From an uncultured Acidobacteriota bacterium (GTDB taxonomy: Bacteria > Acidobacteriota > Thermoanaerobaculia > Gp7-AA8): DNA of 64,000 bases. The position numbers and the translations under genes are program-made. The notes below the pieces were generated by a model that made no database searches, was not told where the DNA came from, and saw only the letters and a program-made list of their open reading frames with translations. Where the stretch lies: assembly GCA_963822445.1 (NCBI GenBank), contig CAWGHO010000001.1, forward strand, positions 1,440,001 to 1,504,000, given 5' to 3'. This document shows positions 12,027 to 61,827 of this stretch, one piece after another (position 1 is the stretch's first letter; each line of letters begins with the position of its first letter).

Positions 12027-12133
12027 CGGAGACCTCTTGACCGCGAATCACACCTAAGCCTCGCACTTGCCGCGTTTAAGTGATTCCGAGCGACGCGCTG
12101 GAAGCATCACTTCTGTCGCCTCTCCAGGTCACG

Positions 12134-12155: not shown

Positions 12156-12158
12156 GCG

Positions 12159-12713: not shown

Positions 12714-12725
12714 GGGCGGGCGATT

Positions 12726-22499: not shown

Positions 22500-22535
22500 G
22501 CCCGAGATTGGCGCATGTTATCCTCGCGCGCCCGC

Positions 22536-23312: not shown

Positions 23313-23318
23313 GCACCT

Positions 23319-40369: not shown

Positions 40370-40371
40370 AG

Positions 40372-40387
40372 GGGCACCATTCTCGCA
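40372..40387 (+). promoter_or_regulatory. sigma54 promoter of topoisomerase IB
   Basis: GGGCACCATTCTCGCA, GG-N10-GC; predicted +1 about 6 nt before the ATG. Confidence 0.5.
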
Positions 40388-40403
40388 GTTTTGCGCCGCG
40401 ACC

Positions 40404-46783: not shown

Positions 46784-47086
46784 CTAAGCCAACCCGATGA
46801 GCTCTTTGTCCGCCTCGCGCGCGTTCTTCACCGTCACGGCGAGGATGGCGATCGGCACGCCCCAGGTCACCAGCTTGCGGAAGACTTTCGGCAGGCCGAA
46901 GCCGACCACGAGGCCGAGGACCGCGCCGCCGGCGATGAGGTGCGGGGCGTAGGTGCGGGCGATGGTCTTCGGATCGAGGTTCGTCCGAAGGTGGCGATCG
47001 AGCTCGTCAATGCGGTCGCCGACGCCGTCCCGCGCACGCACGATCTGCGTCTCGATCGATTTCTTCTGGTCGTCCATGTCTGCCAT
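46784..47086 (-). CDS. DUF3618-like protein (coiled N-terminus plus C-terminal TM)
   Basis: IETQIVRAR..VG..IDEL; follows the holin-X-like gene as commonly seen. Confidence 0.7.
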   Translation of the reverse strand: MADMDDQKKSIETQIVRARDGVGDRIDELDRHLRTNLDPKTIARTYAPHLIAGGAVLGLVVGFGLPKVFRKLVTWGVPIAILAVTVKNAREADKELIGLA

Positions 47087-47500
47087 TTACCTGCTCCTCA
47101 CGCGCGCGACGTCCGCTTTGAGCGAGTCGACGTCGCGTTTGATGTGGGCGATCGAGTCGTTGGGGACGAAGTTCACGTCCTGCAGCTTCTTCTTGCCCAT
47201 GATGCCCAGCACGGCCGCGGCCGCGAAGAGGACGAGGGTCACGATCAGCGCGGAAAGCCACGCCGGAACGCCGAGCGCGACGAGGCCGAGGGTGATCGTC
47301 ACGAAGAGAAAGGCCAGGCCGATCAGGGCCAGGAATCCCGCCCCGGCCAGCAGTCCGCCGCCGGTTCCGAGCTTGGCCACGGCCTCCTTGAGCTCGAGCT
47401 TCAGCAGCGCGATCTCGCTGCGGACGAGCATGGAAATGTCGGAGGTCAGGTCCTTGATGATGCTGCCGAGAGAACGCTCGGCTTCGGTGTAGTTGCTCAT
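47087..47500 (-). CDS. YqjE/holin-X-like membrane protein
   Basis: RSLG.IIKD...D.S.LVR.EI.LLK.E, two TMs, P..SI..IK.D. Confidence 0.85.
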   Translation of the reverse strand: MSNYTEAERSLGSIIKDLTSDISMLVRSEIALLKLELKEAVAKLGTGGGLLAGAGFLALIGLAFLFVTITLGLVALGVPAWLSALIVTLVLFAAAAVLGIMGKKKLQDVNFVPNDSIAHIKRDVDSLKADVARVRSR

Positions 47501-47513
47501 GACGTACTCCTTG

Positions 47514-47529
47514 AGCAAGAGGCTTTCCA
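47514..47529 (-). promoter_or_regulatory. sigma54 promoter of the holin-X/DUF3618 pair
   Basis: Minus strand TGGAAAGCCTCTTGCT, GG-N10-GC. Confidence 0.55.
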
Positions 47530-47545: not shown

Positions 47546-47911
47546 ATGTCGGATGTGATCGAGCTGGTGAAGGACTTTCGATTCGAGGCGGCGCACTTTC
47601 TACCCCAGGTGCCCGAAGGCCACAAGTGCCGGCGGATTCACGGCCATTCGTTTCGGGGCGAAGTGGCGGTGCGGGGACCGATCGATCCGAAGATCGGCTG
47701 GGTGATGGATTTCGCCGACCTCAAGCGGGCCATCGACCCTGTTGTCGCCGAGGTCGACCATTACCTGCTCAACGACGTCGCCGGCCTCGACAACCCCACC
47801 TCGGAACTGCTGGCGATCTGGATCTGGAAACGCCTCGCGCCGGTCGTGCCGAATCTCTTCCGGATCACGATCGAGGAGACGTGCACGTCGCGGTGTCATT
47901 ACTACGGCTGA
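47546..47911 (+). CDS. queD: 6-carboxytetrahydropterin synthase QueD
   Basis: FEAAHFLP, HKC.RIHGHS, MDFAD, DHYLLN, NPTSE, EET. Confidence 0.95.
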   Translation: MSDVIELVKDFRFEAAHFLPQVPEGHKCRRIHGHSFRGEVAVRGPIDPKIGWVMDFADLKRAIDPVVAEVDHYLLNDVAGLDNPTSELLAIWIWKRLAPVVPNLFRITIEETCTSRCHYYG

Positions 47912-48531
47912 GATCTCAGCGGAACGAATCTGACCGCCTCGAGACGCCGCCGCGTGACGTGGCCGCCCTGTTTCTCGATCAGCCAGAGGTGTTGGTAGTC
48001 GGCGGGTCCGACCGGGATGATGCACCGCCCGCCCTCGGCAAGCTGCTCGATGAGCTCTTCGGGCAATAGCTCCGGCGCGGCCGCGGACAGGATGGCGTCG
48101 AACGGGCCTTCGTGGCGGAAGATCTCGACGCCGTTGCCGACGCCGAGGACGACGTTCGTGATTCCGAGTTGCTCGAGACGTTCCGCGGCGCTCGCGGCGA
48201 GCTCCGGCTCGACCTCGGCGCTGTAAACGATGCGGGCGAGCTTCGCCAGGATCGCGGTCTGGTAGCCGGAGCCGGTGCCAATCTCCAGCACCCTCTCGTC
48301 GCCGCGAAGGCGGAGCATTTCCGTCATGCAGGCGACGATGTACGGCTGGGAAATGGTCTGCCCGCGGGTGAGCGGCAGAGGCGTGTCGTCGTATGCCGAG
48401 GCGCGAAGGTTCTGGGGAACGAACACTTCCCGCGGAATCGAGGCGAGGACGTCCAGAACGCGCGGATCACTGACTCCGCGGCTGCGGATCTGTTCGCGGA
48501 TCATCCGCGCGTTGGCGTCATCGCTTTGCAT
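47902..48531 (-). CDS. pcm: Protein-L-isoaspartate O-methyltransferase
   Basis: GQTISQPY, VLEIGTGSGYQ, PFDAI, VRFVPL. Confidence 0.95.
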   Translation of the reverse strand: MQSDDANARMIREQIRSRGVSDPRVLDVLASIPREVFVPQNLRASAYDDTPLPLTRGQTISQPYIVACMTEMLRLRGDERVLEIGTGSGYQTAILAKLARIVYSAEVEPELAASAAERLEQLGITNVVLGVGNGVEIFRHEGPFDAILSAAAPELLPEELIEQLAEGGRCIIPVGPADYQHLWLIEKQGGHVTRRRLEAVRFVPLRSQP

Positions 48532-49612
48532 GTTGCTGCTGCGCACCCGGACGCGGACGGCGGCCGGTTATCCGAAGCTTCATGACCCGGTCCTCGTTCC
48601 GCCGAAGCCGCGGGAGACTCACCAGCACCGTACCATCCTCGGGGATCCCCGTCAGCGACGCATCCCGATGCATGACGAAACTGCCGCTGAAGGCGACCTT
48701 CGTGACGCCGGGCGGCACCCACAACTTCACGGTTGGATTGGCGATCGGTATCCCGCCGCGATTGACCATGCGGATGCTGAAGAAGTCGTCCTTGCGCATC
48801 CGGTCCACGCTGAAGCCGAAGCCGTCGCTCCTGGCCTTCCGGCGCGAGGTCGGCGTGAAGGTCTTCGCGTTCTGCGGATCGCCCACCGCTCCGTCGGACA
48901 CCGGCTGCCCTGAGACCCATCGAAAGGCGGTTCGGAGCATGAGGTGCAAGGTGCCGTCGGGTTTGGGCGGCAGCTGGCGCGGATCGAAGCCAAACCAGAG
49001 ATAGCGCGCACCATCGCGCTCGATGTGCATCACCGCCGCGCGCTCGCTGTCCTTCCATCGCGCGTCGACGACCATGCGCGGCGTCTCTTTCAACAACGCC
49101 ACGGTTCCCGGCCGCGTGGGAATCACGTAGCCGGGTCGCAGCCGCGCGAGCACCGGCGATACATGCTCGGAGAGGCGCACGTTGCCCGTGACCTGGCCGA
49201 CTTCATAGAAAAGCCGGAAGCGGCCGATGGGCGTGCGCGGCGGAACGCCGACGAACGAGATCGCGCCGCCGCGGCGAACGAATTCTTCGAGGAGACTGGC
49301 CAGACGCGGAGTGATCTCATCGACGTCGCAGAAGACGACCACGCCTTCGATGGGATCGAATGTCTCCAGCGGGACCAGCGTCGCCTGCAATTCGGCGGCA
49401 TTGAGCAGCCGCACCCAGGCCGCGCCCAGCTGCGATCCGGAGCGCGCCGTGACGACGGTGACCTTCGGCAGCGGCTCCGGCTTGATGACGATCGATTGCT
49501 GTTCAATGAACGACCAGATGGCCACGGCACCCACCGCCACCACCAGAACGAGCATCGCTCCGTAAATGACGAGATGCTTGCTGGCGACGGTAGCTTCGTG
49601 ACGGCGAGCCAT
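48518..49612 (-). CDS. Membrane-anchored periplasmic protein with GATase-like (trimerisation) fold and C-terminal beta-domain
   Basis: N-terminal TM; L..FVRRGG.I.FVG and G..LWFGF motifs; last gene but one of the GT2 operon. Confidence 0.55.
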   Translation of the reverse strand: MARRHEATVASKHLVIYGAMLVLVVAVGAVAIWSFIEQQSIVIKPEPLPKVTVVTARSGSQLGAAWVRLLNAAELQATLVPLETFDPIEGVVVFCDVDEITPRLASLLEEFVRRGGAISFVGVPPRTPIGRFRLFYEVGQVTGNVRLSEHVSPVLARLRPGYVIPTRPGTVALLKETPRMVVDARWKDSERAAVMHIERDGARYLWFGFDPRQLPPKPDGTLHLMLRTAFRWVSGQPVSDGAVGDPQNAKTFTPTSRRKARSDGFGFSVDRMRKDDFFSIRMVNRGGIPIANPTVKLWVPPGVTKVAFSGSFVMHRDASLTGIPEDGTVLVSLPRLRRNEDRVMKLRITGRRPRPGAQQQHAKR

Positions 49613-49618
49613 GTTCTT

Positions 49619-49724
49619 AGTAGGCAGTGGGCAGTGGGCAGTAGGCAGTGGACCCGGGGACGGGCGGGGGCCCCCTGCCTACCGCCTACTGCGAACGCGC
49701 CGTACGGCGCGCGTACTGCCTACT
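49619..49724. repeat. Fold-back element of heptamers AGT(A/G)GGC with a nested palindrome
   Basis: AGTAGGC AGTGGGC AGTGGGC AGTAGGC AGTGG ... GCCTACC GCCTACT [CGCGCCGTACGGCGCG] GCGTACT GCCTACT. Confidence 0.88.
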
Positions 49725-49911
49725 ATTTCTTCGGCTCGTACTGATTGAAGAACGCCTTCATCTGCCCTTCCTGGCGCAGTTCGCCTGCGGTCTTCGGGCG
49801 GCGAGCTTCACGTACCTTGTAAGCAAAGTAAGAAGCTACGGCGAGAATCAGTGTGACGACGATGGAGACGAAGATGACCGTCGCCAGAATGTTTACCCAG
49901 TCCAGTCTCAT
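49723..49911 (-). CDS. Small single-TM protein (62 aa) in the GT2 operon
   Basis: One TM plus basic tail; AAGGA SD upstream; directly after the GT2 gene. Confidence 0.7.
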   Translation of the reverse strand: MRLDWVNILATVIFVSIVVTLILAVASYFAYKVREARRPKTAGELRQEGQMKAFFNQYEPKK

Positions 49912-49935
49912 GTGCAGGTCCTTCCGGTTCGAGAG

Positions 49936-51267
49936 TTAAATGCGGCCCTTGCGGGCGAGTTTTCCCCACGACATGTCGAGGCCGACCAGCTCCTCGAGCG
50001 TCGCGAATACTTTCGTCACGTCAATGATGAGGATGTAGAAGAAACGGTAGAACACCGCGTAAGCAGCCAGCCTGAGATCCTCTTTCTCCATGAGGATCGC
50101 GTGCACGGCGATGAGCACGTCCAGCAGCGTCAACAATAGCCACCACATCACCAGCAGCTTCTGCATGCCGAACATCAGGGCGATGTAGACGAAGAAGAGG
50201 CTGGAGAAAATGTTCATCGCCGGCCAGACCAGGCCTTCGAAAATCATGTACCAGAGGGACAGCGGCGTGGTGACGACGCCGGACGTCCGCGTGAGCAGAT
50301 GCTTCTGCTTGCGCAGGGCCTGCAGAATCCCGCGGCTCCACCGATACCGCTGCTTGATGATGTCCAGCAGTTCCTCGGGCGCTTCGGTATAAGCGACGGC
50401 CTTCGGCTCATAATTGATCTTCCAGCCGTTCGCGAGGATCTTGACGGTCATGTCGAAATCTTCGGCGTAGGTGTCGCTGTCGTAGCCGCCCGTGCCTTCA
50501 ATGGCGGTGCGGCGGAAGATGCCCATTGGACCGGGAATCACGTTCACCGAGCGGAAGAACGCCTGGGCCTTGCGAACGATGTTGAGCCCCTCGATGTATT
50601 CGAGGGCCTGCAGCTTCGTCCAGATGTTGTGGCGGTTGATGACCTTCACATTGCCGGCAACGGCGCCGACGTTCGGATCGGTGAACTGCCGGATCGCATA
50701 ACGCAGCGCGTCCGGAGTCAGACGCGAGTCCGAGTCCATGCAGATCACGATCGGCGCACGCGAGCGGCGGATGCCGTAATTCAGCGTGTCGGCCTTGCCC
50801 GAATTTTCCTTGCGGAAAACCTGGACTTTCACGCCGTAATGGTTCCCCTCGAACTCACGCATCTTCTCGTACGTGCCGTCCGTGGAACCATCGTCGACGG
50901 CGATGATCTCGTAATACGGATAACGCAGCTCGAGGAGGGACGCGAGCGACGCGTGAATGACCTCGGCCTCATTGAACGCCGGCACGATGATGCTGACGAA
51001 CGGGTAATGCTCGGGCGGCTCGTCATGCGAGAGCTCGCGCTGATGCAGGAAGCTGAACCAGATCAGCACGAAGTGACGGAGGATCAGCAACAGAAGGAAG
51101 CTGGCCAGCGTCACGACGAGGGCCGAGACCGCGATCGGGCCGAGGCGTTCCGGATAGCGGAACATGAAGATCGTCAGGACGACGACTGCGAGAATGATGA
51201 GAATCGAGATGATGGCCTGCTTGCGCGGGCTCATCGGTGTGCGCACGACAGGTTTCCTGGTTTCCAT
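49936..51267 (-). CDS. Processive GT2 polysaccharide synthase (PgaC/IcaA-like)
   Basis: VPAFNE, DDGSTD, GKA..LN.G, DSD, AED, QRYRW; N- and C-terminal TMs. Confidence 0.9.
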   Translation of the reverse strand: METRKPVVRTPMSPRKQAIISILIILAVVVLTIFMFRYPERLGPIAVSALVVTLASFLLLLILRHFVLIWFSFLHQRELSHDEPPEHYPFVSIIVPAFNEAEVIHASLASLLELRYPYYEIIAVDDGSTDGTYEKMREFEGNHYGVKVQVFRKENSGKADTLNYGIRRSRAPIVICMDSDSRLTPDALRYAIRQFTDPNVGAVAGNVKVINRHNIWTKLQALEYIEGLNIVRKAQAFFRSVNVIPGPMGIFRRTAIEGTGGYDSDTYAEDFDMTVKILANGWKINYEPKAVAYTEAPEELLDIIKQRYRWSRGILQALRKQKHLLTRTSGVVTTPLSLWYMIFEGLVWPAMNIFSSLFFVYIALMFGMQKLLVMWWLLLTLLDVLIAVHAILMEKEDLRLAAYAVFYRFFYILIIDVTKVFATLEELVGLDMSWGKLARKGRI

Positions 51268-51270
51268 GGC

Positions 51271-53811
51271 TTATCGCACCTCCGGCGGCACCGCGTCGGA
51301 GCTCGCCAGCACTCGATTGTCGAAGTAATAGCGGTCGGCGCTGTCGATGTCATGCGTGGCGCGCATCCGCTTCACGCGCACGCCGACGTAGAAGCTCCGC
51401 TGCCAGTAAGTCGCGAACTCCGGATCACCGATGAACGACTCGAAACGTCCGCTGCGTCCGTAGTTGTACGAGCCGATGATGTCGAAGGCATCGCTGATCG
51501 GGACCGTGACTCGCGCGGCCCACGCCCGGAGGTCGGAACTGCGGTCCCCATCCCACGACTTGCCGATCTTCAGCTCGGCGGTCCAGAAGATCCGATCGTT
51601 GATGTCCTGTCCAACCTGCAGCACGCCGGCGAGTGAGCGGTAATCATCCGGCGACCAGTAGCGGTTCGTGCGCTGCTCATACGACAGCACCCGCCCGTCG
51701 GCTTTGATCGCGACGAATGGCTCTTTGAAGAGGCGGAAGCTGAGAAGTCCGTGCGCGGACTGCCGGGAGTTATCGTCGGAAATGCGGCCATACGAGCCGT
51801 CGACCAGGAAGGACCAGAAACCGCCCGAATCCCAGTCGTAATGCGCGCGGAAGTCGTCGACCGACAGCGGATCGTTCAGCCGCACCTCATTGCGAGGCGA
51901 GAGCGTGAACATGTTCGAGACGTCGTAAATCAGGTCGTAATGGTTGTAGTCGAGCGCGGCCCGGCTCTGGATGTTCGGCAGATAAACGGCGCCAAGTCCG
52001 AAGTAAGGGCGGGTGCCGAGGCTGCCGGTTTCCCAGAACGTCGCACCGACGCGGCCGCGGAGGGTCAGGCGGTCGTTCGTACGATACGCGGCGCCGATGT
52101 GGGCGACGTTCGCGTCGGCGGCAAGATCGCGCTGTTCGAAGTGGTGGCGTCCCACACCGCCATTGACGGCGATCCGTGGATTCAGCCAGTGCTCCGCGGT
52201 GAGATCGCCGCGGCGGGTGTGGAAGTCGTTCGAATTGACTTCGTCCGTGTAGCGCGCCTCGATCTGCGATCCCGGCAGTCCGTAACGCGCGCGCTGTAAT
52301 TCGCGATGCGCATCAGTGAGTCCGGAATCGAGCGAAAGCGCGTAATTCTGTTCCTCGGCCGCGGTGTCCCGCCAGCCGAACCAGCGGTAGATCTGTCCGA
52401 GGCGGAAGTGAGCTTGCGGCGGGACGTCCTCGTATAAGTACGCGCGCGGCGAATCGGAGAGATCCGTCAACGTGCGCAGAGTGCGGATGGCCGGAACGTA
52501 TTCGCGGTCATAAGTCAGCGCCTGCGCGTATTCGAGCTTGATGTCGGGACGATTCGGATCCGCCTTGAGAACAATCTCGTACTGGCGCTGCGCTTCGTCA
52601 TAGCGACGGTCCCAGCTCAGCACGCGGGCGTAATTGCGGCGGGCCACGTTGTCATCCGGCGCGGACTTCAAATAGACCTCGTAGAGCTCGATCGCCGGAT
52701 CGTATGCGCCGAGGCCGGTGTAGGCCTTGGCCAGCTCGAGGACCTGTTCGCCGACCGCGCCGGCCGAGCTGTACATGGCCGGATCGCCGAACAACGAGCG
52801 GCGGCGTTCGTCGACGGCCACCAGCTCTTCCTTGCGGCGATCGAGAGCCTGCTGCTCCAGCTCGTCCAGCCCGGCCACCTCGGTCATGGTGTGCTCGCGA
52901 ATGAACTTGATGGCGCGGAGCGTCTCGCCGTAGCGGCCGGCGTCATAAAGCAACCGTGCACGCTGTACGCGAAGGGCGAGGTTGTACGGATCGATGCCGA
53001 TCATCTTGTCGAGGCGCTCGATCCGAAGATCGGGGGAAGTGCGAAGCTCGGCGAGCGTCTTTTCCGCGTCGCGCGATCCACTGTTCGCCGCGGTGAAATC
53101 CTCGAGCAGCCGGATGGCCCCTTCGCGATCGCCGCTCCAGGCCCGTGCGTTCGCCAGTGCGACCGCTGAATCTTCATTGTTGAGCGTGTCATGCGCCCGC
53201 TCGAGGCGCTGAACGGAAAGCTTCTCGGCGCCCATCCAGGAAAGCGTGCGGCCATATTCGAGCTCGAGCTCCGGACTCGGGCTGTCCTTCAGAAGCGCGG
53301 CATAACGCTCTTCCGCGGCGGAGTGCTGACCGGACCAGGTGAGCGCGCGTGCGTGATGCGTGCGCGACTCGACGGTCATCACGCCGTCCGGCAGCTTCGC
53401 GAACAAGTCCGCCGCTTCGCGATAGCGGCCGGCGGAGAAATAGGCGTTCGCGAGCTCGAGCCGATCGGCATCGGTCGCCCCATCCCGTTTCGCAGCGGCC
53501 TCGGCATCCTCGAGACGCTGCACGGCGATGAGGCGCATCTGCTCGGTCGCACGATCGCGTACGCCCGCCGCTTCGGTGTCGTTCGCATCGGCGTCGGCGA
53601 TCGCCCCGGCGAGCTTCTTGGCCTCGTAGTAACGGCCGACTTCAATGTAGGCGCGGGCAAGATCGAGTTGCTCGGCGCGCGTGGCCGTGCCGGCTTCTTG
53701 CGCTTTCTCCAGCCGCGAGATCGTCTTGCGCACATCCTCATCGGCCGCGGCGGCGGTGAAGGCGCACAACACCACTACGCAACAGATGAACAGCAACTTG
53801 CTGGGCTTCAT
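51271..53811 (-). CDS. TPR + C-terminal beta-barrel polysaccharide export protein (PgaA/BcsC/PelB-like architecture)
   Basis: Signal peptide; repeated A..L.W.G TPRs; aromatic-rich beta-strand C-terminal region with YWSP..Y. Confidence 0.7.
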   Translation of the reverse strand: MKPSKLLFICCVVVLCAFTAAAADEDVRKTISRLEKAQEAGTATRAEQLDLARAYIEVGRYYEAKKLAGAIADADANDTEAAGVRDRATEQMRLIAVQRLEDAEAAAKRDGATDADRLELANAYFSAGRYREAADLFAKLPDGVMTVESRTHHARALTWSGQHSAAEERYAALLKDSPSPELELEYGRTLSWMGAEKLSVQRLERAHDTLNNEDSAVALANARAWSGDREGAIRLLEDFTAANSGSRDAEKTLAELRTSPDLRIERLDKMIGIDPYNLALRVQRARLLYDAGRYGETLRAIKFIREHTMTEVAGLDELEQQALDRRKEELVAVDERRRSLFGDPAMYSSAGAVGEQVLELAKAYTGLGAYDPAIELYEVYLKSAPDDNVARRNYARVLSWDRRYDEAQRQYEIVLKADPNRPDIKLEYAQALTYDREYVPAIRTLRTLTDLSDSPRAYLYEDVPPQAHFRLGQIYRWFGWRDTAAEEQNYALSLDSGLTDAHRELQRARYGLPGSQIEARYTDEVNSNDFHTRRGDLTAEHWLNPRIAVNGGVGRHHFEQRDLAADANVAHIGAAYRTNDRLTLRGRVGATFWETGSLGTRPYFGLGAVYLPNIQSRAALDYNHYDLIYDVSNMFTLSPRNEVRLNDPLSVDDFRAHYDWDSGGFWSFLVDGSYGRISDDNSRQSAHGLLSFRLFKEPFVAIKADGRVLSYEQRTNRYWSPDDYRSLAGVLQVGQDINDRIFWTAELKIGKSWDGDRSSDLRAWAARVTVPISDAFDIIGSYNYGRSGRFESFIGDPEFATYWQRSFYVGVRVKRMRATHDIDSADRYYFDNRVLASSDAVPPEVR

Positions 53812-53874
53812 GGGACTCTCCGCTGTTTCTTTGGAACCGGGCCGCTACCTCAACCGGTCCGAGATGGCGACTTG

Positions 53875-53890
53875 TGCAATGGCGATTCCA
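53875..53890 (-). promoter_or_regulatory. sigma54 promoter of the TPR-GT2 operon
   Basis: Minus strand TGGAATCGCCATTGCA, GG-N10-GC. Confidence 0.7.
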
Positions 53891-53932
53891 ATGTTGGGAA
53901 TAACCGATTGAGAGCTATCAGTTGAGCGGCGC

Positions 53933-54781
53933 TCATTTCTTCGTCGTGGTCGTGGCAGTGGTGTCCGTCGCGGTCGGAGGCGGGGTCGCTTCGACATCAC
54001 AACCGGTGTAATCGGTGGCAAGAACTACCGCCAGATGATCGGCAACGCGGCGCTCCGATTTGTCGCTGGGCTGATTGACGATTGCGTCGCTCACCCACAT
54101 CGCGCTCGATCCGCCGCCATCGAGATTGATGGCCGAGCAGGTACCGAGCTCTTCGGCCATGAATCGCGCCAGCTTGGCCAGCGTCATCCCGGGAATGCCT
54201 TCGCGCCGCCCATCCGCGACGACCATATAAAGCGTCGTTCCATCCTCGGAAACACCGACCGCAGTTCGGGGATGCGGCGAGCGGGTGAAGCCGTCGCTGC
54301 CTGGTAATTCCGTAGCGGACAGGGCCGTGCAATTCTTCACGAGCATCGGCCAACCGGAGACCGCCACGTCCATCCATTCCTCCGGTTCGGCAAGAACTTC
54401 CTTGGGCGGGTAGATCGCGACGCGGCCTTCGCCAATGGCAACGACGCCTTCGCGCTCTGTGTCTTTCGTTCCTTCCCACACACCGCACGGCCCGATCGTC
54501 AGGCCAACCGGCTTCATCTGTTTATCGAAATAGTCGGCATTGATCGCGACCACTGCTTTGGTTTTCTTCGCGTAATCGCTGACCTTGAGTCCGCGCTCCG
54601 ATTCACGTGTCGCCGTGACGATTACATCGGGATTCGTGAGATCGACGCGCGTTACATGCACGTCCATCGCATCGCGATTGAAGCGCTGATATTCGACGCC
54701 GGACGCCACGACGTTCCAATCAGCAAGCGCGGCTGTAGCGACGAGCCACACCAGTGCGGACAGCATTACGGCACGTTTCAT
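53933..54781 (-). CDS. Phosphodiester glycosidase (NAGPA/DUF2233 family)
   Basis: Signal peptide; AINADYF, HPRTAVG, VADGR, AINLDGGGSS, PSD..ER.V. Confidence 0.9.
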   Translation of the reverse strand: MKRAVMLSALVWLVATAALADWNVVASGVEYQRFNRDAMDVHVTRVDLTNPDVIVTATRESERGLKVSDYAKKTKAVVAINADYFDKQMKPVGLTIGPCGVWEGTKDTEREGVVAIGEGRVAIYPPKEVLAEPEEWMDVAVSGWPMLVKNCTALSATELPGSDGFTRSPHPRTAVGVSEDGTTLYMVVADGRREGIPGMTLAKLARFMAEELGTCSAINLDGGGSSAMWVSDAIVNQPSDKSERRVADHLAVVLATDYTGCDVEATPPPTATDTTATTTTKK

Positions 54782-54854
54782 AGATACCTCTCTGGAAGGG
54801 ATGAACTACCCGGGCGAGGGCCCTTTTCAAACGCCGTACCCAACTACTAATAAT

Positions 54855-54870
54855 TGGCATTCCGAATGCA
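54855..54870 (+). promoter_or_regulatory. sigma54 promoter of the LCP genes
   Basis: TGGCATTCCGAATGCA, GG-N10-GC. Confidence 0.65.
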
Positions 54871-54956
54871 GTTGGCGGCATCACGTAGCAGTAAGCAATT
54901 TCGCAAGAAGGCCGGTGAAGCAGAACACCGGCTGAACGCTCACCAGGGGTCTACCA

Positions 54957-56000
54957 ATGAGTTTTGACGCTGATTCGTCGTACAGCCGCCTCCCGGCTGG
55001 AGTGGCCGCACGGATGCCGAAGGCCTCCTCCCGCACCAAAGCCACGGCGACCAGAGGACAGAAGGCGATCGAGCTCACGCTCTTCGCCGTTTTCGGATTC
55101 ACGATCGCCCTGGCCGGCTTCGCGCTCTACGCGACGAACCGTCCCGAGCATCAGCTCGTGCCGAATCGCGTGGCCGCCGGACTGAAAGCCGATCGGGTGA
55201 ACGTCCTCCTCATCAGCGCCTCGCTCCGGCCGAACGGGTCGGAGACCAGCGACGTCCGCACCGAGTCGCTGATGCTGCTATCCGTGCAGCCGTCGACGGG
55301 TCGAACGGCCCTGACTTCGATCCCGGTCGATCTCTGGGTGAAAGTCGGCCGCTACGGACAGCGCCCGCTGCACTCGGCTTACACCGTCGGCAACGCCAGC
55401 GGCTATCCGGGAGCGGGAACGGGCCTGACGGTCGACACGATCGAGACGATCATCGATGAGCCGATCCATGGCTACGCCCGCCTGAGCATCGGCGACGTCT
55501 CCCGCATCGTCGATCGCGTCGGCGGCGTCGAGGTCGACGTGAAGCGCGGGGTGTACGAGATTCGCGGCGACCGGCATCGCTTCCGCCGCGGCGTGCAGCG
55601 TTTCAAAGGGACCGACGCGATGCACTACGCGTACGCCGGCCGCGTCGCCGGTTTCGCCGCCGACCGCTTCGAGCGCGAGCAGCGCCAGCGCGAAGTGGCC
55701 ATCGCCACCATCACCAGGATCCTCGGCTCGAAGATGGAGAACCTGAACCGGTTCGAGTCCGCCTTCGGCAGCGTCGCGGCCACGAACCTCACCGGCGACC
55801 AGATCCGCACGCTCGCCCTCGCCGCCCGCCGGGGCGGCGACATCCGCGTCGTCAGCTGGAAGCCCTATCTCGATGTCGTCGACGTCAGCAGCGTTGCGTA
55901 TCGCGGCGAGGCCGTGAAGCCGCGCAGCGGCGACTTCGCCGCCGTCCGCCAGCTCACCGACGCGGCCTTCGAGGCCGGCGTCGTCGCCAAGATTCACTGA
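54957..56000 (+). CDS. LCP (LytR-CpsA-Psr) family protein, degenerate motifs
   Basis: TM, VNVLLI, RTES, SIPVDL, IVD.VGGVEV, R..RQ. Confidence 0.8.
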   Translation: MSFDADSSYSRLPAGVAARMPKASSRTKATATRGQKAIELTLFAVFGFTIALAGFALYATNRPEHQLVPNRVAAGLKADRVNVLLISASLRPNGSETSDVRTESLMLLSVQPSTGRTALTSIPVDLWVKVGRYGQRPLHSAYTVGNASGYPGAGTGLTVDTIETIIDEPIHGYARLSIGDVSRIVDRVGGVEVDVKRGVYEIRGDRHRFRRGVQRFKGTDAMHYAYAGRVAGFAADRFEREQRQREVAIATITRILGSKMENLNRFESAFGSVAATNLTGDQIRTLALAARRGGDIRVVSWKPYLDVVDVSSVAYRGEAVKPRSGDFAAVRQLTDAAFEAGVVAKIH

Positions 56001-56014
56001 TTGAGGAGCCTCGC

Positions 56015-57136
56015 ATGTCTTACACGCGCAACAATCCGCCCCTTGCTCCGCGGTACGACAAGCCCAAAGACAAGAAGAAAAAAGGCCTGGCCGAATATCT
56101 GATGTACGGCTTCGTGATCGTGCTCGTGGCCATCGTGACGATCGCCTCGTACGCCCATTTCGCCCCAGGCATGAAAGAAGTGCCGAACCGGGTCGCCGAG
56201 GGGTTCGATCAGGACCGGATCAATCTCCTCCTGATCGGCATCGGCGGCGACGCCCATCCCGGTGAAGGAAAGGACCTGGCCGACTCGATCATCCTGGTCA
56301 GCCTCAAACCCTCCACCCGCCAGGCCGCGCTCGTTTCCCTTCCCCGCGACCTCTACGTCCCGATGGACAGCGGCATCGGCATGCAGCGGCTGAACGCCGC
56401 CCACGCGCTGGGTGACCGCATGGGCTTCAAAGGAAAGGGCCCCGGCTTCCTCGTCCACACCGTCCAGAACCTCCTCGGCGAACCGGTCCACGCCTACGCC
56501 CGCATCGACTTCAAGGCCTTCGAGAAAGTGATCGACGCCATGGGCGGCATCGACGTCTACGTCTACCGCCCCTTCTACGACTACCTGTTCAAGGATGGAT
56601 TCGAGAAGGGATGGCACCACCTCGACGGCAAGCGCGCTCTGCGTTACGCGCGCTACCGGCACATCCGCGCGTCGTACGAGGGCAACAACTTCGGCCGGGA
56701 ACTGCGCCAGCAGCAGGTCGTGGACGCCATCCGCGACAAGATGAAAACCCTCGACGCGTCGCAGATCCTGCGCCTGTCCAAGCTGGCCATGAATTCGTCG
56801 GACTTCACCTCGACGAACCTCACCACGCCGCAGATGGTCGAGCTGTACACGACCTTCCGCAACACGAAGCGCGCGGACGTCCGCCACGTCTCGCTCAAGA
56901 AATTCACGAAGATCATCAAGCTCACCGAGCCTCACCTCTACGGGGAGGCCGTGGCCCCGCCGAAAAACGACTACACGAAGATTCGCGAGGTCGTGCGCAC
57001 GGTCTTCAACGGACGGGAGCCGATCGTGGCCCCGAGCGAGATCCAGCTGACCGAGGTTGGCGAGCCGCCGGCGGCCGCGAAGGACGAAAAAGTCGAAGCG
57101 AATCGTCAAGCCGTTGCGGCCGCGGTAGGACGTTGA
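56015..57136 (+). CDS. LCP (LytR-CpsA-Psr) family protein
   Basis: TM, INLLLIG, DSIILV, SLPRDL, RLNAA, IDAMGGIDV, ALRYARYR, FGRELRQQ. Confidence 0.9.
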   Translation: MSYTRNNPPLAPRYDKPKDKKKKGLAEYLMYGFVIVLVAIVTIASYAHFAPGMKEVPNRVAEGFDQDRINLLLIGIGGDAHPGEGKDLADSIILVSLKPSTRQAALVSLPRDLYVPMDSGIGMQRLNAAHALGDRMGFKGKGPGFLVHTVQNLLGEPVHAYARIDFKAFEKVIDAMGGIDVYVYRPFYDYLFKDGFEKGWHHLDGKRALRYARYRHIRASYEGNNFGRELRQQQVVDAIRDKMKTLDASQILRLSKLAMNSSDFTSTNLTTPQMVELYTTFRNTKRADVRHVSLKKFTKIIKLTEPHLYGEAVAPPKNDYTKIREVVRTVFNGREPIVAPSEIQLTEVGEPPAAAKDEKVEANRQAVAAAVGR

Positions 57137-57159
57137 AACGGTGATCGGCTGCGCCCGGC

Positions 57160-57175
57160 TGGCCCGGCTGTTGCT
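57160..57175 (+). promoter_or_regulatory. sigma54 promoter of the KaiC-REC-GGDEF* gene
   Basis: TGGCCCGGCTGTTGCT, GG-N10-GC. Confidence 0.7.
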
Positions 57176-57241
57176 TTTTACTTCCGCTCGGCACGCCAGC
57201 AACGAGCCGCAGTTGCAGCCAGAAACCTTCCGGAGAAAACC

Positions 57242-58930
57242 ATGAATGGATCAACGGACGTGCGGTCGATGAGCTCCTCGGGCTCCACCCCTCGCAGCGC
57301 CACGGGCGCGAAAACGGATAAACAGATTCCCATCACCTCCCCTGTCCCCGATTCGGCGGGAAAGCCGCGCTCCTCGCGAGGCGGCGCGGGCGACCGGATC
57401 ATCAGCGGAATCGATCTGATCGACTTCGGCGCCGGCGGACTGATGCCGAACCACGTCTACCTGGTCAAAGGCGCCGGTGGACTCGGCAAGTCGATTCTCG
57501 GGCTGCAGTTCCTTACCCGCGGCCTCGAGCATCAGGAGCCGGGGATCCTGATCACCGACCAGAAGCCTGAAAAGGTCATCACCCAGGCCACGGCCATCGG
57601 CTTCACGATCGAGGACGCCGTCCGGCGGAACCAGCTCTCGATCCTCAACCCCAGCGGCCGTTACTTCGACCTCGTCGAGAGCCCGGCCGACGTCATGGCC
57701 ATCGTCGAAGAGCTCGGCGACTACATCAAGAAAATCGGCGCGAAGCGCGTGGTCATCGATCCGATCTACACGCTCATCAACACCCAGTACTCGAGTCACT
57801 TCGCCCTGACCCTCACCCAGTCGATGATGAACGCGCTGGAAGACCTTCCGGCGACCGTGATTCTCATCGCCGGCGATGAGGACAGCGCCGAGCTGAATCC
57901 GATCATCCGGATGCTCGAGGGGAACGCGTTCGGCGTCGTGCAGCTGAAGCAGGACACTGCCACCGGCGGCCGCGTGATGAGCATCCCCAAACTGCGCTAC
58001 GCGTCGAGCGAGGATCTTTCCTCGCACTACCGCATCCTCAACGGCCGCGGCCTGATCAACTATCGCGGCGAAGGCGAGAAGGTCACCGACGTCACCAAGC
58101 CTTGGGAAGAGGCGACCGAGGCGAATCGGAATGTGCTCGTGATCGGCGCGCAGTCCGACACCATCCGCAAAGTCAAAGAAGCCCTCGGCGACAAGTACAA
58201 AGTCGACGCGGAATCCGATCTCAAGACCGCCGTCGATCGCGTCAAGCGCGAGAAGCCCGGCCTGGTCATGGTCACGCCGCAGCGCAGCGCGGGTGCGATC
58301 AGCGCCATCCTGGACATCACCCAGCATTCCTCATCGTCGGTGGCGTTCCTCTCCCCGGCCGGAAATCGCCAGGCCGATCGCGTGCTGTACCTGCGCGCCG
58401 GTGCGGACGATTACTTCAGCGAGCCGTTCACGCCGGCCGAGCTTCGCGCTCGCGTCGACGCGCTCATCCGCCGCAGCGGCCGCCGCCTCAACATCCGCGA
58501 CTCCGGCGCCAACTCCATCACCGCGGACGAGATGAGCGCGCTGATGAACGCCGGCGAGACCACCTCGCAGAGCCGCAGCGGACCGGTGCTCACCGCCAGC
58601 GAAAACGACAACGTGCAGTACGACCCCGAGTTCAACGATCGCCTGCAGCGCAACATCGACACCGTGTCGAAGCTCGACACTCCGTTCGCCGTGTACTGGA
58701 TCAAGGGCGACGGCGACGATCGCGAGCTGAACACCTCCCTGGCGAAACTCTGCCGGCAGGAAGACATCCTCTGCCACAACCGCAACGGCGAGTTCGTGGC
58801 CATCCTCACCGGCACGGATGCAAACGGCATCAAAGGCTTCGAGAACCGCCTCGAGGAGAAGCTCGGCGACCGCATCGCCCGTAGCAAGCGCGGACACCAG
58901 CTTTATCAGCCCGGTGAGACCAGCGCCTAA
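57242..58930 (+). CDS. KaiC/RecA-like ATPase + pseudo-receiver + degenerate GGDEF protein (BcsE-like c-di-GMP receptor)
   Basis: SGIDLID, Walker A GAGGLGKS, Walker B VVID; REC lacking the phospho-Asp with RQAD..GADDY..PF...EL.AR; RQED + NRNGEF. Confidence 0.75.
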   Translation: MNGSTDVRSMSSSGSTPRSATGAKTDKQIPITSPVPDSAGKPRSSRGGAGDRIISGIDLIDFGAGGLMPNHVYLVKGAGGLGKSILGLQFLTRGLEHQEPGILITDQKPEKVITQATAIGFTIEDAVRRNQLSILNPSGRYFDLVESPADVMAIVEELGDYIKKIGAKRVVIDPIYTLINTQYSSHFALTLTQSMMNALEDLPATVILIAGDEDSAELNPIIRMLEGNAFGVVQLKQDTATGGRVMSIPKLRYASSEDLSSHYRILNGRGLINYRGEGEKVTDVTKPWEEATEANRNVLVIGAQSDTIRKVKEALGDKYKVDAESDLKTAVDRVKREKPGLVMVTPQRSAGAISAILDITQHSSSSVAFLSPAGNRQADRVLYLRAGADDYFSEPFTPAELRARVDALIRRSGRRLNIRDSGANSITADEMSALMNAGETTSQSRSGPVLTASENDNVQYDPEFNDRLQRNIDTVSKLDTPFAVYWIKGDGDDRELNTSLAKLCRQEDILCHNRNGEFVAILTGTDANGIKGFENRLEEKLGDRIARSKRGHQLYQPGETSA

Positions 58931-58951
58931 ACCATCCTCCTCTCTCCTGAG

Positions 58952-58985
58952 AAACGCCGGCCTGGGGCCGGCGTTTTCGTTTTCT
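58952..58985 (+). terminator. Intrinsic terminator
   Basis: AAACGCCGGCC-tgg-GGCCGGCGTTT followed by a T-rich tail. Confidence 0.8.
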
Positions 58986-61798: not shown

Positions 61799-61827
61799 CA
61801 GTTTGCAGTCCGAACCGCACTGAACCG

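Follow-up and report, generated by a model that had tools for sequence, protein, structure and literature searches.

A conserved sigma-54-associated gene cluster encoding a candidate exopolysaccharide machine in Thermoanaerobaculia

Genes at the locus

The stretch of DNA analyzed here (the window; 64,000 nt) contains, at positions 47902..58930, a gene cluster that is conserved in uncultured soil Acidobacteria of the class Thermoanaerobaculia. Analysis of open reading frames together with Pfam and NCBIfam shows all nine genes in place, with the coordinates, domains, and operon layout proposed in an earlier sequence-only reading of this DNA. Five genes form an operon on the minus strand, encoding an 846-aa TPR protein (51271..53811), a GT2 processive membrane glycosyltransferase (49936..51267), a 62-aa single-TM protein named tm62 (49723..49911), a 364-aa protein named unk364 (48518..49612), and pcm (47902..48546). 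The NAGPA gene lies on the same strand (53933..54781), and two LCP genes and KRG (a KaiC-REC*-GGDEF* gene) are on the plus strand.

In unk364, there is a single N-terminal hydrophobic anchor (a 19-mer at aa 14-32), and no match was found in Pfam, NCBIfam, or the PDB, profile search included. Among 120 listed of its 305 relatives, all are named "hypothetical," and the names that bear a taxon are all from Thermoanaerobaculia or Acidobacteria. It is probably an N-terminally anchored, periplasmic protein of an orphan family. The pcm gene, which overlaps unk364 by 29 nt, encodes a protein-L-isoaspartate O-methyltransferase (PCMT PF01135, E = 4e-57; NF001453, 225 bits, above the cut-off). Although it is indeed the final gene of the minus-strand operon here, pcm is a variable passenger across loci, found beside the cluster in some of them only (six full-length matches).

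NAGPA has a signal-like N terminus and belongs to the NAGPA/DUF2233-type secreted glycosidases (PF09992, E = 2e-36), with PDB matches to 3ohg (DUF2233; E = 1e-13) and to NAGPA entries (E of ∼1e-6). It is a candidate periplasmic polymer-processing enzyme. The two LCP genes had been taken as a pair, which holds for the window, but they consist of one canonical gene and one paralogue in which conserved Arg residues are missing, and the pair is limited to a sub-lineage (L001, L006, L007, L008, L009, L033, and the window). LCP1 (54957..56000; PF03816, E = 7e-21; anchor at aa 40-58) displays PVD for PRD and YAYAG for YARYR in the alignment, and is a membrane-anchored paralogue, probably degenerate in catalysis. 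LCP2 (56015..57136; PF03816, E = 3e-35; TIGR00350, 113.6 bits, above the cut-off) retains the PRD, YARYR, and RELRQQQ positions and matches the TagV, TagU, and Cps2A structures (E = 3e-24 to 3e-18), which identifies it by sequence as a canonical member of the LytR-CpsA-Psr glycopolymer phosphotransferases, whose catalytic domain is periplasmic.

Sigma-54 promoters and conservation of the cluster

Three sigma-54-type −24/−12 promoters had been proposed, and their placement, strand, and conservation in orthologous loci confirm them. For the motif TGG-N8-WTGCW, 3.9 occurrences are expected in the window and six are observed. Three of these, at 53875(-), 54855(+), and 57160(+), are intergenic, on the correct strand, and 79-102 nt 5' of start codons. 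The first (TGGAATCGCCATTGCA, 53875..53890) is 79 nt from the start codon of the TPR-GT2-tm62-unk364(-pcm) operon, the second (TGGCATTCCGAATGCA, 54855..54870) is 102 nt from the LCP1 ATG, and the third (TGGCCCGGCTGTTGCT, 57160..57175) is 82 nt from the KRG ATG. The exact consensus TGGCAC-N5-TTGC was searched for and not found; the sites read TGGAAT-N5-TTGCA, TGGCAT-N5-ATGCA, and TGGCCC-N5-TTGCT. The strict motif, which has a background rate of 0.019 per 215-nt window, is present 5' of the TPR operon in 20/20 loci (consensus TGGAATcnCcaTTGCA), 5' of the LCP unit in 18/21 (consensus TGGCACctcgaATGCA), and 5' of KRG in 29/30, including four with a relocated KRG. Before control genes, it was found for GT2 in 0/19, unk364 0/13, pcm 0/7, TldD 0/15, PmbA 0/13, QueD 0/5, and tm62 2/17 cases, and NAGPA, with the motif in 2/21 loci, lacks a dedicated sigma-54 site. 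The three sites are real and exceed chance. Within the cluster, an enhancer-binding protein, a diguanylate cyclase, and a riboswitch were all looked for and none was found, and neither was a common activator motif upstream of the promoters.

Co-occurrence of these genes in related genomes was an expectation of the sequence-only reading, and it is borne out within Thermoanaerobaculia. In the loci assessable beside KRG, all of which come from this one class, an LCP gene is immediately 5' of KRG in 25/29, NAGPA is present in 20/24 (between the TPR and LCP genes), the TPR protein in 20/22, GT2 in 18/20, tm62 in 15/17, and unk364 in 12/16. Except for two absences of unk364, all the misses fall in one clade (support 100/100), because of a single rearrangement. 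KRG is detached from the cluster in 4/29 loci, all in one clade, where it adjoins a DUF4388-FHA gene. In locus L035 the cluster and KRG have decayed together, with the stretch from unk364 through KRG aa 463 gone. Wherever an LCP gene adjoins KRG, NAGPA (20/20), the TPR gene (20/20), and GT2 (18/18) are retained in order, and the NAGPA/LCP/KRG block with the synthase operon persists across 45-85% protein divergence. A single genome scan for the cluster returned matches only from Thermoanaerobaculia/Acidobacteriota. In 5/5 loci of one clade, a GH18 gene is immediately 3' of KRG.

Whether these genes act as one system can be questioned. It is possible, if rather unlikely, that they are separate adjacent modules sharing only a sigma-54 regulon and a neighborhood, i.e. 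that TPR-GT2-tm62-unk364 is a self-contained exopolysaccharide (EPS) exporter, NAGPA and the LCPs attach and trim a peptidoglycan-linked wall polymer, and KRG is a general regulator responding to c-di-GMP/ATP and directed at other targets. There are indeed three promoters, and KRG has its own intrinsic-terminator-like hairpin (58951..58977, plus strand; a 12-bp stem with eight GC pairs, then a T-run) and retains its sigma-54 promoter after relocation. Likewise, besides lacking such a site, NAGPA is inverted in locus L016, where it is grouped with the LCP gene instead of the synthase operon. LCP enzymes are described for Gram-positive wall polymers, in passages that draw no link to synthase-dependent export, and a general role in controlling the exterior of the cell has been proposed for sigma-54 (PMC3162934). 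Against separate modules stand the order of NAGPA, LCP, and KRG kept beside the synthase operon, the constancy of the block while flanking pcm and TldD/PmbA vary between loci, and locus L034, which carries independent lesions in the synthase block and in KRG (two separate deletions, one from GT2 to LCP and one of KRG aa 73-434).

KRG, a candidate c-di-GMP sensor

KRG (57242..58930) has KaiC and archaeal GvpD as top matches (KaiC PF06745, E = 4e-30; KaiC structures, E = 2e-20), followed by a receiver domain that scores under the Pfam cut-off (REC, E = 7e-5). No hydrophobic segment was found in its sequence, and no PilZ domain by Pfam. The window protein also has no Pfam GGDEF match, and the assignment of a degenerate GGDEF domain rests on alignment, in which RQED, five residues, and RNGEF align with the canonical RPSD, five residues, and GGDEF. 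When 14 relatives were scanned, PF00990 matched six at E ≤ 0.01, of which a single one exceeded the cut-off. Across 27 aligned relatives, Walker A is conserved in 20/27 (canonical in the clade of the window), the receiver Asp in 5/27, and GG[DE]EF in 0/27. Even in relatives of only 20% identity R505 and D508 do not vary, R536 is conserved in 26/27, and the residues of the C-terminal domain that are invariant over this range are all at I-site positions. The RxxD I-site is five residues ahead of the dead GGDEF motif, a spacing equal to that described for YdaK. These features make KRG a candidate cytosolic c-di-GMP sensor, with a degenerate receiver and a degenerate GGDEF domain that has kept its I-site.

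It is improbable, but conceivable, that KRG is rather a KaiC/GvpD-type ATPase signaling protein, regulated via ATP and protein contacts, the C-terminal domain being a structural remnant in which the conserved R/D/R are needed for folding or for binding a partner. Its Walker A and top matches agree with this, as does a GGDEF remnant that escapes Pfam, is ∼17 residues short in its N-terminal half, and is truncated at its C terminus. What argues for a sensor is that the invariant C-terminal residues coincide with I-site positions at exactly canonical spacing, and that YdaK and BcsE, in the accounts given of them, were identified as receptors by the same residue logic.

Synthase, putative exporter, and comparison with known systems

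The motifs D125/D126, D178xD180, E269-D270, and Q306RYRW310 of GT2, which matches Pfam GT2 families, are invariant in 14 orthologues, and the protein has two N-terminal and at least three C-terminal hydrophobic segments. Its top NCBIfam match is PgaC_IcaA (219 bits, under the 422-bit cut-off; NodC, 115 bits), and it shares 32% identity with Escherichia coli PgaC (E = 2e-44). The nearest annotated relatives, and the top plasmid ones, are GH18-CE4-GT2 fusions, which match aa 70-443 at 35-37% identity (200-230 bits), followed by PgaC/HmsR/IcaA (136-160 bits) and NodC (107-115 bits). UDP-GlcNAc is the substrate of all these nearest annotated relatives. GT2 is thereby assigned to the processive synthases of the UDP-GlcNAc-using PgaC/IcaA/NodC group, and the polymer is probably of poly-N-acetylglucosamine type. 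Starting 24 nt past the end of GT2, tm62 (TM at aa 8-26) is 79-97% identical among 16 loci, in which the stretch ASYFAYKVRExRRPK does not vary, and has a conserved basic tail. It has no similarity to BcsF (E = 0.041) or PgaD, and is a candidate small subunit of the synthase.

The TPR protein, whose gene ends 3 nt 5' of the GT2 start, has a signal-like N terminus and TPR families at aa ∼100-510. Its C-terminal 340 aa have no strong Pfam match. When the C-terminal 357 aa of 19 family members were considered, the weak Pfam matches were to outer-membrane barrel families only (OMP_b-brl in 8/19, PgaA_barrel in 2/19 with a best E of 5e-4, Porin_4 in 2/19, and BCSC_C in 1/19). This region has at least 11 amphipathic β segments. 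In an orthologue (P0378, aa 505-858), Atlas features point to PgaA_barrel (0.94; 199/256 features) and BcsC (0.93), and the ten best family-bearing matches all belong to the family or clan of the top one. In contrast, hhalign comparisons of the C-terminal profile were not significant (probabilities: E. coli PgaA barrel, 2.4%; BcsC, 2.2%; a four-sequence PgaA barrel profile, 0.9%), and a PDB profile search gave no match. The proposed TPR-plus-barrel exporter is thus upheld by weak Pfam matches and Atlas features and not by hhalign, and the C terminus is probably a PgaA/BcsC-type outer-membrane β-barrel. That the TPR protein is instead a Slam-like or other outer-membrane translocon of lipoprotein or protein cargo, the GT2 glycan staying in the envelope (lipid-linked or periplasmic), is very unlikely. 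In its favor, TPR_Slam (PF24575) reaches 26.8 bits on the window protein (cut-off 35.2) and is a precomputed domain on most homologues, and Atlas features touch the SlipAM and YaiO barrels (0.91 each). Against it, the PgaA_barrel and BcsC clusters come first (0.94, 0.93, 0.93) and have the largest number of features in common, PgaA_barrel is the top-scoring Pfam barrel family, the 3-nt spacer couples the gene translationally to a processive GT2, no lipoprotein cargo gene was found in the operon by Pfam and hydrophobicity scan, and TPR/porin genes accompany synthases in a parts list of synthase-dependent operons (PMC9384988).

GT2 with all its catalytic motifs, tm62, the TPR protein, NAGPA, the LCPs, KRG, and three promoters are seen directly. 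The explanation that we favor, at slightly better than even, is a synthase-dependent, poly-GlcNAc-type EPS machine that is controlled by sigma-54 as a set and gated by c-di-GMP. An enhancer-binding protein would activate the three promoters together. GT2, with tm62 as small subunit, would polymerize UDP-GlcNAc and drive the chain into the periplasm, where the TPR domain would pass it to its own C-terminal barrel for export. NAGPA, and perhaps unk364, would replace the periplasmic hydrolase or modifier present in every such system. KRG would bind c-di-GMP at its RxxD I-site (R505, D508, and R536) and, as an ATP-binding KaiC-like oligomer, gate or assemble the synthase at the membrane. LCP2 may use a sugar-1-phosphate bond to attach to peptidoglycan this polymer or else a wall polymer that is co-regulated with it. 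It counts against the proposed machine that LCP enzymes act on polyprenyl-pyrophosphate-linked polymers, which synthase-dependent systems are not known to produce.

Precedent for such sets of parts exists in synthase-dependent operons (PMC9384988), and the relatives of GT2 and the barrel-family matches of the TPR protein fit the PNAG-like machinery proposed earlier. Compared with the pga system, GT2 remains under the PgaC_IcaA cut-off, and neither a PgaB-type deacetylase nor a PgaD homologue was found at the cluster by Pfam and sequence comparison. The action envisaged for KRG is analogous to that of BcsE/BcsF, PelD, YdaK, and PssE in other systems. As for its description as BcsE-like, the likeness is in layout, three domains with an RxxD I-site as in BcsE (PMC7439463). 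By sequence, no relation to BcsE was found (hhalign probability of 0.3% against E. coli BcsE, and no BcsE Pfam match), and KRG keeps a canonical Walker A, which BcsE as described in that source does not have. The putative machine, found so far only in Thermoanaerobaculia, mixes familiar parts with several unfamiliar ones.

Gene content and conservation of the locus

The gene map that the sequence-only reading had drawn for this region is borne out by the listing of open reading frames (ORFs), third-position GC, and domain scans. On the minus strand, the genes encode, in transcription order, a PF09992 glycosidase referred to as NAGPA (53933-54781), an 846-aa TPR protein that is the candidate exporter (51271-53811), the candidate synthase GT2 (49936-51267), a 62-aa protein with a single transmembrane (TM) segment, tm62 (49723-49911), a 364-aa anchored orphan, unk364 (48518-49612), and finally Pcm (47902-48546). 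On the plus strand, a pair of LytR-CpsA-Psr proteins, LCP1 (54957-56000), whose gene diverges from that of NAGPA, and LCP2 (56015-57136), precedes KRG (57242-58930), a 562-aa protein with a KaiC domain, a degenerate receiver (REC*), and a degenerate GGDEF domain (GGDEF*), listed as KaiC-REC-X. Only 3 nt separate the stop codon of the TPR protein gene from the start of GT2, and 24 nt lie between the end of GT2 and the start of tm62. Hydropathy places GT2 in the membrane, with two N-terminal and at least three C-terminal segments, and gives one hydrophobic anchor each to tm62, unk364, LCP1, and LCP2, signal-like N termini to the TPR protein and NAGPA, and no hydrophobic segment to KRG.

The cluster is bounded by a QueD gene convergent with pcm and by a strong hairpin terminator 3' of KRG, after which TldD/PmbA follow as separate genes. 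We rejected pcm as a part of the system because it is found in a minority of loci only, and TldD/PmbA because of the terminator between them and KRG and because they are missing downstream in many loci. Elsewhere, the window consists of ordinary chromosomal DNA, with mutL, lpxC, smpB, glyA, accD, dprA, and a gene for a type IB topoisomerase; the GC content is even, and PADLOC gave no match. Taxon names among the relatives of the cluster proteins assign the organism to Thermoanaerobaculia (Acidobacteriota). Three other stretches contain large or glycan-related ORFs. At 33782-40609 on the minus strand, where the AT skew is strongly positive, there are four tandem large ORFs (433-677 aa) without a Pfam family, two of which have weak LA_3751/LA_3752 putative glycosyltransferase matches (E 1.5e-4 and 8e-4). 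A second glycan-related block at 20181-25691 on the plus strand, which may be a lipid-linked glycosylation module, encodes a 772-aa protein without a family, a 265-aa GT2 protein (E 3e-18), and a 790-aa protein whose C terminus weakly matches YfhO. Finally, a 985-aa protein with PD40 β-propeller repeats and an Omp85-type C terminus is encoded at 41477-44434 on the minus strand; it is conserved with 64-67% identity in L034 and L035, the two loci in which the flank is long enough.

A genome scan queried with an alignment of KRG orthologues (A2) returned 36 loci, all from Thermoanaerobaculia or Acidobacteriota metagenome-assembled genomes. After two deletion remnants were set aside, and with each gene counted only where the flank suffices, the assessable loci contained upstream of KRG an LCP gene in 25 of 29, NAGPA in 20 of 24, the TPR protein in 20 of 22, GT2 in 18 of 20, tm62 in 15 of 17, and unk364 in 12 of 16. 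The co-occurrence in related genomes on which the proposal of a single system depended is thus observed within these 36 loci. The misses are accounted for by four loci (L003, L012, L014, and L025) and by the absence of unk364 from L006 and L007. In these four loci, KRG keeps its σ54 promoter and lies after an MFS gene and a DUF4388 (PATAN)-FHA gene (about 1.5 kb upstream) and before a gene for a TPR protein. A KRG tree of 32 rows, from which rows with <90% coverage were left out, groups these loci in a single clade (100/100 support), and we therefore interpret the relocation of KRG as a single rearrangement. A GGDEF-EAL gene is found in L025, about 6 kb upstream of KRG.

Two loci have lost much of the cluster, with only the GGDEF* end of KRG left and no Ns at the junctions. 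A single deletion in L035 (9150-10350) runs from inside unk364 to KRG residue 463. In L034 (8800-10700), there are two separate deletions, one from GT2 to the LCP gene and the other an in-frame loss of KRG residues 73-434; in this one instance, the synthase block and KRG have decayed independently of each other. Two further features are restricted in distribution. Paired LCP genes are found only in the window and six loci (L001, L006, L007, L008, L009, and L033), and a gene for a GH18 (chitinase-like) protein is absent from the window but lies directly 3' of KRG in every one of the five members of one clade (L015, at 11933-13267, and L017, L018, L019, and L036, at the corresponding position).

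σ54-type promoters

The sequence-only reading had placed σ54 promoters at 53875(−) before the TPR protein operon, 54855(+) before the LCP unit, and 57160(+) before KRG. We took as a promoter an element with GG at −24 and GC at −12 at fixed spacing, located upstream of a gene and conserved. The exact consensus TGGCAC-N5-TTGC has no match in the window, and the relaxed pattern TGG-N8-WTGCW has six (3.9 expected), three of which are located on the coding strand within the three short spacers of the cluster, at distances of 79, 102, and 82 nt from the start codons of the TPR protein, LCP1, and KRG genes, respectively. In orthologous loci, the element is present within 200 nt upstream of the TPR protein gene in 20/20, the first LCP gene in 18/21, and KRG in 29/30, at a background rate of 0.019 per stretch of that size. 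By contrast, eight control genes have it in zero to two loci each (GT2 0/19, unk364 0/13, pcm 0/7, TldD 0/15, PmbA 0/13, QueD 0/5, NAGPA 2/21, and tm62 2/17). Moreover, each promoter has its own conserved flavor, namely TGGAAT..TTGCA (TPR protein), TGGCAC..ATGCA (LCP), and TGGcgC..TTGCT (KRG). Together, the sites in the window and their conservation, which uphold the three promoters, are good evidence for three σ54-dependent units predicted in the cluster. NAGPA, as judged from the region upstream of it, is not among these units.

The regions upstream of the three promoters have no 8-mer in common and no shared motif, and Rfam detected no riboswitch at the cluster, either at the gathering threshold or at E≤1. 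No gene for an enhancer-binding protein was found in or beside the cluster, in the window or downstream of KRG in 19 loci (41 of the 58 called ORFs scanned), and rpoN is not within the window. At 7012-10519 on the minus strand, a gene for an NtrC-type σ54 enhancer-binding response regulator (7012-8358; Sigma54_activat, E 9e-74) adjoins one for an NtrY-like HAMP histidine kinase; this regulator is the sole σ54 activator in the window and is encoded 40 kb from the cluster. The three conserved promoters offer a clean regulon marker for finding the activator and its signal.

Other relaxed matches are found elsewhere in the window. At 46784-47529 on the minus strand, a fourth σ54-type site, TGGAAAGCCTCTTGCT (47514-47529), lies before a holin-X-like gene (47087-47518; PF07332, E 4e-33) and a 100-aa ORF, and a motif of the TGGAAAGCCTCTTGCT type is found upstream of the holin-X-like gene in three of five loci. 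Because its listed TTG start overlaps the motif, the true start of this gene is probably further downstream. The remaining matches are at a PmbA/ABC-permease junction (61792-61807, plus strand) and near a BON-domain gene (2172-2187, minus strand).

Predicted functions of the encoded proteins

The DD, DxD, ED, and QRYRW motifs of GT2 are invariant in 14 orthologues, and the protein matches the structures of BcsA and hyaluronan synthase at E ∼1e-17. GT2 is therefore, by sequence, a predicted inner-membrane processive glycosyltransferase, i.e. the component that carries out polymerization and translocation in synthase-dependent exopolysaccharide (EPS) systems. Its best curated family in NCBIfam is PgaC_IcaA (TIGR03937), at 219 bits (E 1e-64), below the equivalog cut-off of 422.3 bits, followed by NodC at 115 bits. 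GT2 and E. coli PgaC share 32% identity (E 2e-44), and a comparison with NfrB (E 0.002 over 82 aa) found no relationship beyond the GT2 core. A plasmid search returned 437 records with a match. The best correspond to the C-terminal module of 1117-1149-aa proteins (35-37% identity to aa 70-443 of GT2, 200-230 bits), and in two of three such fusion proteins that were fetched Pfam identified GH18, CE4 deacetylase, and GT2 domains. Next come PgaC/HmsR/IcaA (136-160 bits) and NodC (107-115 bits). All these enzymes use UDP-GlcNAc, and the synthase groups by similarity with GlcNAc-polymerizing enzymes. Since the relatives of GT2 use UDP-GlcNAc and a GH18 gene follows KRG in one clade, our best guess is that the polymer is GlcNAc-based. 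In a Deinococcus plasmid (L041:4721-9888), a GAF-GGDEF diguanylate cyclase gene lies directly after a GH18-CE4-GT2 fusion gene, an arrangement that hints at c-di-GMP control of this GT2 subfamily in other phyla too.

The locus is not a pga operon because PgaB and PgaD are absent: no cluster protein has a PgaB-type Polysacc_deac_1 domain, and comparison of tm62 with PgaD gave a probability of 0.2%. Within the block, conservation is highest for tm62, whose orthologues are 79-97% identical and share an invariant basic tail. Nothing significant was found when tm62 was compared with BcsF (E 0.041), PgaD, or a 63-aa ORF after the Bacillus mycoides fusion gene.

In the TPR protein, repeats (TPR_19, E 4e-19; TPR_14, E 2e-14) fill residues ∼100-510 and, given the signal-like N terminus, would provide the periplasmic TPR domain of a synthase-dependent EPS system. 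The C-terminal ∼340 residues are conserved and contain many alternating strands, at least 11 by a crude script and about 16 by eye. When the C-terminal parts of 19 orthologues were scanned singly, the weak Pfam matches were all to outer-membrane barrel families, i.e. OMP_b-brl (8/19), PgaA_barrel (PF21197, 2/19, best E 5e-4, below cut-off), Porin_4 (2/19), and BCSC_C (1/19). Similarly, in Atlas, a protein language-model feature resource, the corresponding region (residues 505-858) of an orthologue, which has 50% identity there, matched two PgaA_barrel clusters (0.94 with 199 and 0.93 with 198 of the 256 features) together with a BcsC cluster (0.93), ahead of Slam and YaiO barrels. Profile comparisons gave no significant relationship: hhalign of the C-terminal profile against PgaA yielded probabilities of 2.4 and 0.9%, the BcsC C terminus was likewise not significant, the protein or its profile found nothing in PgaA, NfrA (0.9%), or BcsC, and a PDB profile search with the C terminus came back empty. 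A short motif common to the TPR protein and BcsC (RYWSPDDYRSLAG versus GGYYSPQEYLSFA) is suggestive only. We regard the C terminus as a probable outer-membrane β-barrel and its membership of the PgaA family as a lead.

Potential periplasmic components are the secreted NAGPA-type glycosidase and the anchored unk364; Pfam detected no CE4, GH8, GH153, or lyase domain in the cluster proteins. NAGPA scores 126 bits against PF09992 (cut-off 25) and matches the DUF2233 structure 3ohg (E 1e-13) as well as NAGPA entries, which assigns it by sequence to the DUF2233/uncovering-enzyme family. We found no physiological role for bacterial PF09992 proteins in the papers searched. Because synthase-dependent systems carry at least one periplasmic enzyme that modifies or cleaves the polymer, according to the sections consulted of PMC9384988, NAGPA can be read by analogy as the candidate periplasmic glycosidase of this system. 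The profile of unk364 matched nothing in Pfam or the PDB, and its relatives in a large protein set, among the matches listed, are only "hypothetical" proteins of the same lineage; by these searches, it is an orphan.

LCP2 is by sequence a regular LCP enzyme. It scores above cut-off against PF03816 (122 bits) and TIGR00350 (113.6 bits), matches the structures of TagV, TagU, and Cps2A (E 3e-24 to 3e-18), and keeps the PRD, YARYR, and RELRQQQ motifs. LCP1 also passes the domain cut-offs, with PVD for PRD and YAYAG for YARYR, so that PRD lacks its Arg and YARYR its first one; we take the PRD and YARYR positions to be catalytic residues. The upstream copy is a lineage-specific duplicate, in which PVD, PAD, or PAS replaces PRD (54957-56000 in the window, and all six other loci with two copies), and it still carries the σ54 promoter of the unit in the window and in L001. 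LCP proteins require lipid-pyrophosphate-linked substrates, and for this reason we do not assign them a role in the synthase pathway. The accounts consulted describe these enzymes for Gram-positive wall polymers.

KRG has an N-terminal KaiC domain (aa 55-270; Pfam E 4e-30, structures E 2e-20) with a canonical Walker A motif, GAGGLGKS. In an alignment to KaiC, Asp-Gln occupies the position of the two catalytic glutamates of KaiC, and it is therefore possible that KRG binds ATP and hydrolyzes it slowly or not at all. In the receiver (aa 298-405), the acceptor position is occupied by Thr or Ser across the whole clade (Thr in the window protein). The C-terminal domain aligns with canonical GGDEF domains, although PF00990 found no match on the window protein; it has RNGEF at the GGDEF position, RQED five residues upstream, and lacks about 17 residues of the N-terminal half. 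Without a GG[DE]EF active site or a full domain, KRG is not predicted to be a diguanylate cyclase. Library-wide, KRG has 5585 relatives at E≤0.001, 15 of them at E≤1e-30. The 150 that were listed include full-length three-domain proteins with 23-31% identity; PF00990 was found at E≤0.01 in 6 of 14 scanned, once above cut-off, and two of the 10 relatives looked up had taxon names, Acidobacteria and Eisenbacteria. In an alignment of 27 sequences with identity down to 20%, R505 and D508 are invariant, R536 is present in 26, Walker A in 20, and GG[DE]EF in none. The R-D-R spacing is that of the inhibitory site of PleD.

The sections consulted on YdaK report an RxxD five residues upstream of a dead GGDEF motif, a spacing rule that KRG fits. 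BcsE, as described in the parts consulted of PMC7439463, has a RecA-like N-terminal domain, REC*, and GGDEF* with an RxxD I-site, and its membrane recruitment needs the short peptide BcsF. The label "BcsE-like" given to KRG in the sequence-only reading thus holds for the three-domain layout with RxxD and does not hold for sequence homology: hhalign of the 27-sequence profile against E. coli BcsE gave a probability of 0.3%, and there is no BcsE family among the Pfam and NCBIfam matches. With the same layout and no sequence relationship, KRG plausibly works like BcsE, YdaK, and PelD, outside those families, and we infer that it binds both c-di-GMP and the synthase. A KaiC-REC*-GGDEF* protein of this kind suggests that the BcsE-type layout extends beyond enterobacterial cellulose systems and can be combined with an intact nucleotide-binding loop, so that how these receptors arose and how they work become testable questions.

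Interpretation and comparison with known systems

The picture of a hybrid EPS machine is partly supported. What stands, as far as sequence allows, is a conserved, σ54-controlled, synthase-dependent EPS locus with a synthase similar to GlcNAc-polymerizing enzymes; what falls is the BcsE sequence homology. The nine genes may form one physical unit, and the polymer and c-di-GMP control are likewise putative. A published description of this gene set was not found in the literature searched; in the portions consulted, a survey of synthase-dependent operons mentions neither Acidobacteria nor LCP, and a review likewise has neither in this context.

A more specific scheme, which we regard as improbable, is a diderm "attach-and-release" pathway gated by c-di-GMP and ATP, with a wall-bound intermediate. 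GT2 would elongate a GlcNAc polymer from a polyprenyl-pyrophosphate primer, which LCP2 would move onto peptidoglycan via a GlcNAc-1-phosphate bridge, and the NAGPA-type phosphodiester glycosidase would cut this bridge, freeing the chain for export by the TPR/barrel protein. The ATP-binding KaiC-type ATPase would integrate c-di-GMP (through the I-site) and energy state, gating the synthase via tm62. If true, a covalent wall-bound intermediate would be a first among synthase-dependent systems, and KRG would represent an ATP-binding forerunner of BcsE-type regulators.

Returning to the synthase-dependent EPS locus as such, it is possibly a fifth synthase-dependent system. The systems for cellulose, alginate, Pel, and PNAG are the best-understood biofilm machines and, to our knowledge, have been described from hardly any bacteria other than Proteobacteria and a few Firmicutes. 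Here, in a soil lineage that is abundant and for the most part uncultured, the GT2 and TPR/porin core would be rebuilt with different accessories, i.e. an orphan periplasmic protein, a 62-aa candidate subunit, and a NAGPA-type glycosidase replacing the usual hydrolase. Its neighbors are LCP transferases, otherwise a hallmark of Gram-positive wall anchoring.

The composition of the locus matched none of the named systems compared, in line with the sequence-only reading, which knew of none. PgaABCD/HmsHFRS/IcaADBC are similar in the synthase (GT2 has 443 aa and PgaC 441 aa, with the same motifs), in a TPR and probable porin protein encoded in the synthase operon, with weak PgaA_barrel signals, and in a small membrane protein gene after the synthase gene. 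However, the locus has no PgaB deacetylase/hydrolase, GT2 reaches 219 of the 422 bits, tm62 has a single TM segment and does not resemble PgaD, comparisons of the TPR protein with PgaA are not significant, and NAGPA, LCP, unk364, KRG, and the σ54 promoters are additions. The closest annotated relatives of GT2 are the GH18-CE4-GT2 fusions (∼1117-1149 aa) on plasmids of Deinococcus, B. mycoides, and Sulfitobacter, with a similarity (E 1e-51 to 1e-64) that includes the membrane part at the C terminus. In contrast to these, GT2 stands alone without a chitinase-like or deacetylase domain, a separate GH18 gene exists in one clade of loci only, and the annotated stretches of the plasmid loci have no TPR/barrel, LCP, or KRG genes.

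BcsE, in the parts consulted of PMC7439463, shares with KRG the three-domain layout (a RecA/KaiC-like domain at the N terminus, REC*, and GGDEF* with RxxD), whereas the canonical Walker A motif sets KRG apart. BcsF (63 aa) resembles tm62 as a short single-pass membrane protein unrelated in sequence, but the tm62 gene is beside that of the synthase rather than KRG, and there are no BcsQ/BcsR-like genes. Unlike in the E. coli-type cellulose system, the synthase is PgaC-like without a PilZ domain. YdaK, in the sections consulted, has a dead GGDEF, an intact RxxD five residues upstream, and a gene beside that of a processive EPS synthase, as does KRG. We take Listeria PssE and Pseudomonas PelD to be receptors of this same dead-GGDEF/RxxD type. 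YdaK and PelD are membrane-anchored (four TM segments, or TM plus GAF) whereas KRG is soluble, and KRG adds to the YdaK/PssE/PelD arrangement a KaiC-type ATPase and a receiver remnant. NfrB-NfrA-YbcH of E. coli follows, by annotation, the same general plan, in which a GT2 under c-di-GMP control is combined with an outer-membrane protein containing TPRs and with an auxiliary protein in the periplasm, but unk364 does not match YbcH, the TPR profile gave a probability of 0.9% against NfrA, and GT2 reached only E 0.002 over 82 aa against NfrB; NfrB carries its own c-di-GMP domain. Finally, in contrast to TagT/U/V and Cps2A on the one hand and NAGPA/DUF2233 proteins on the other, both families are here found in a diderm, beside a synthase-dependent operon.
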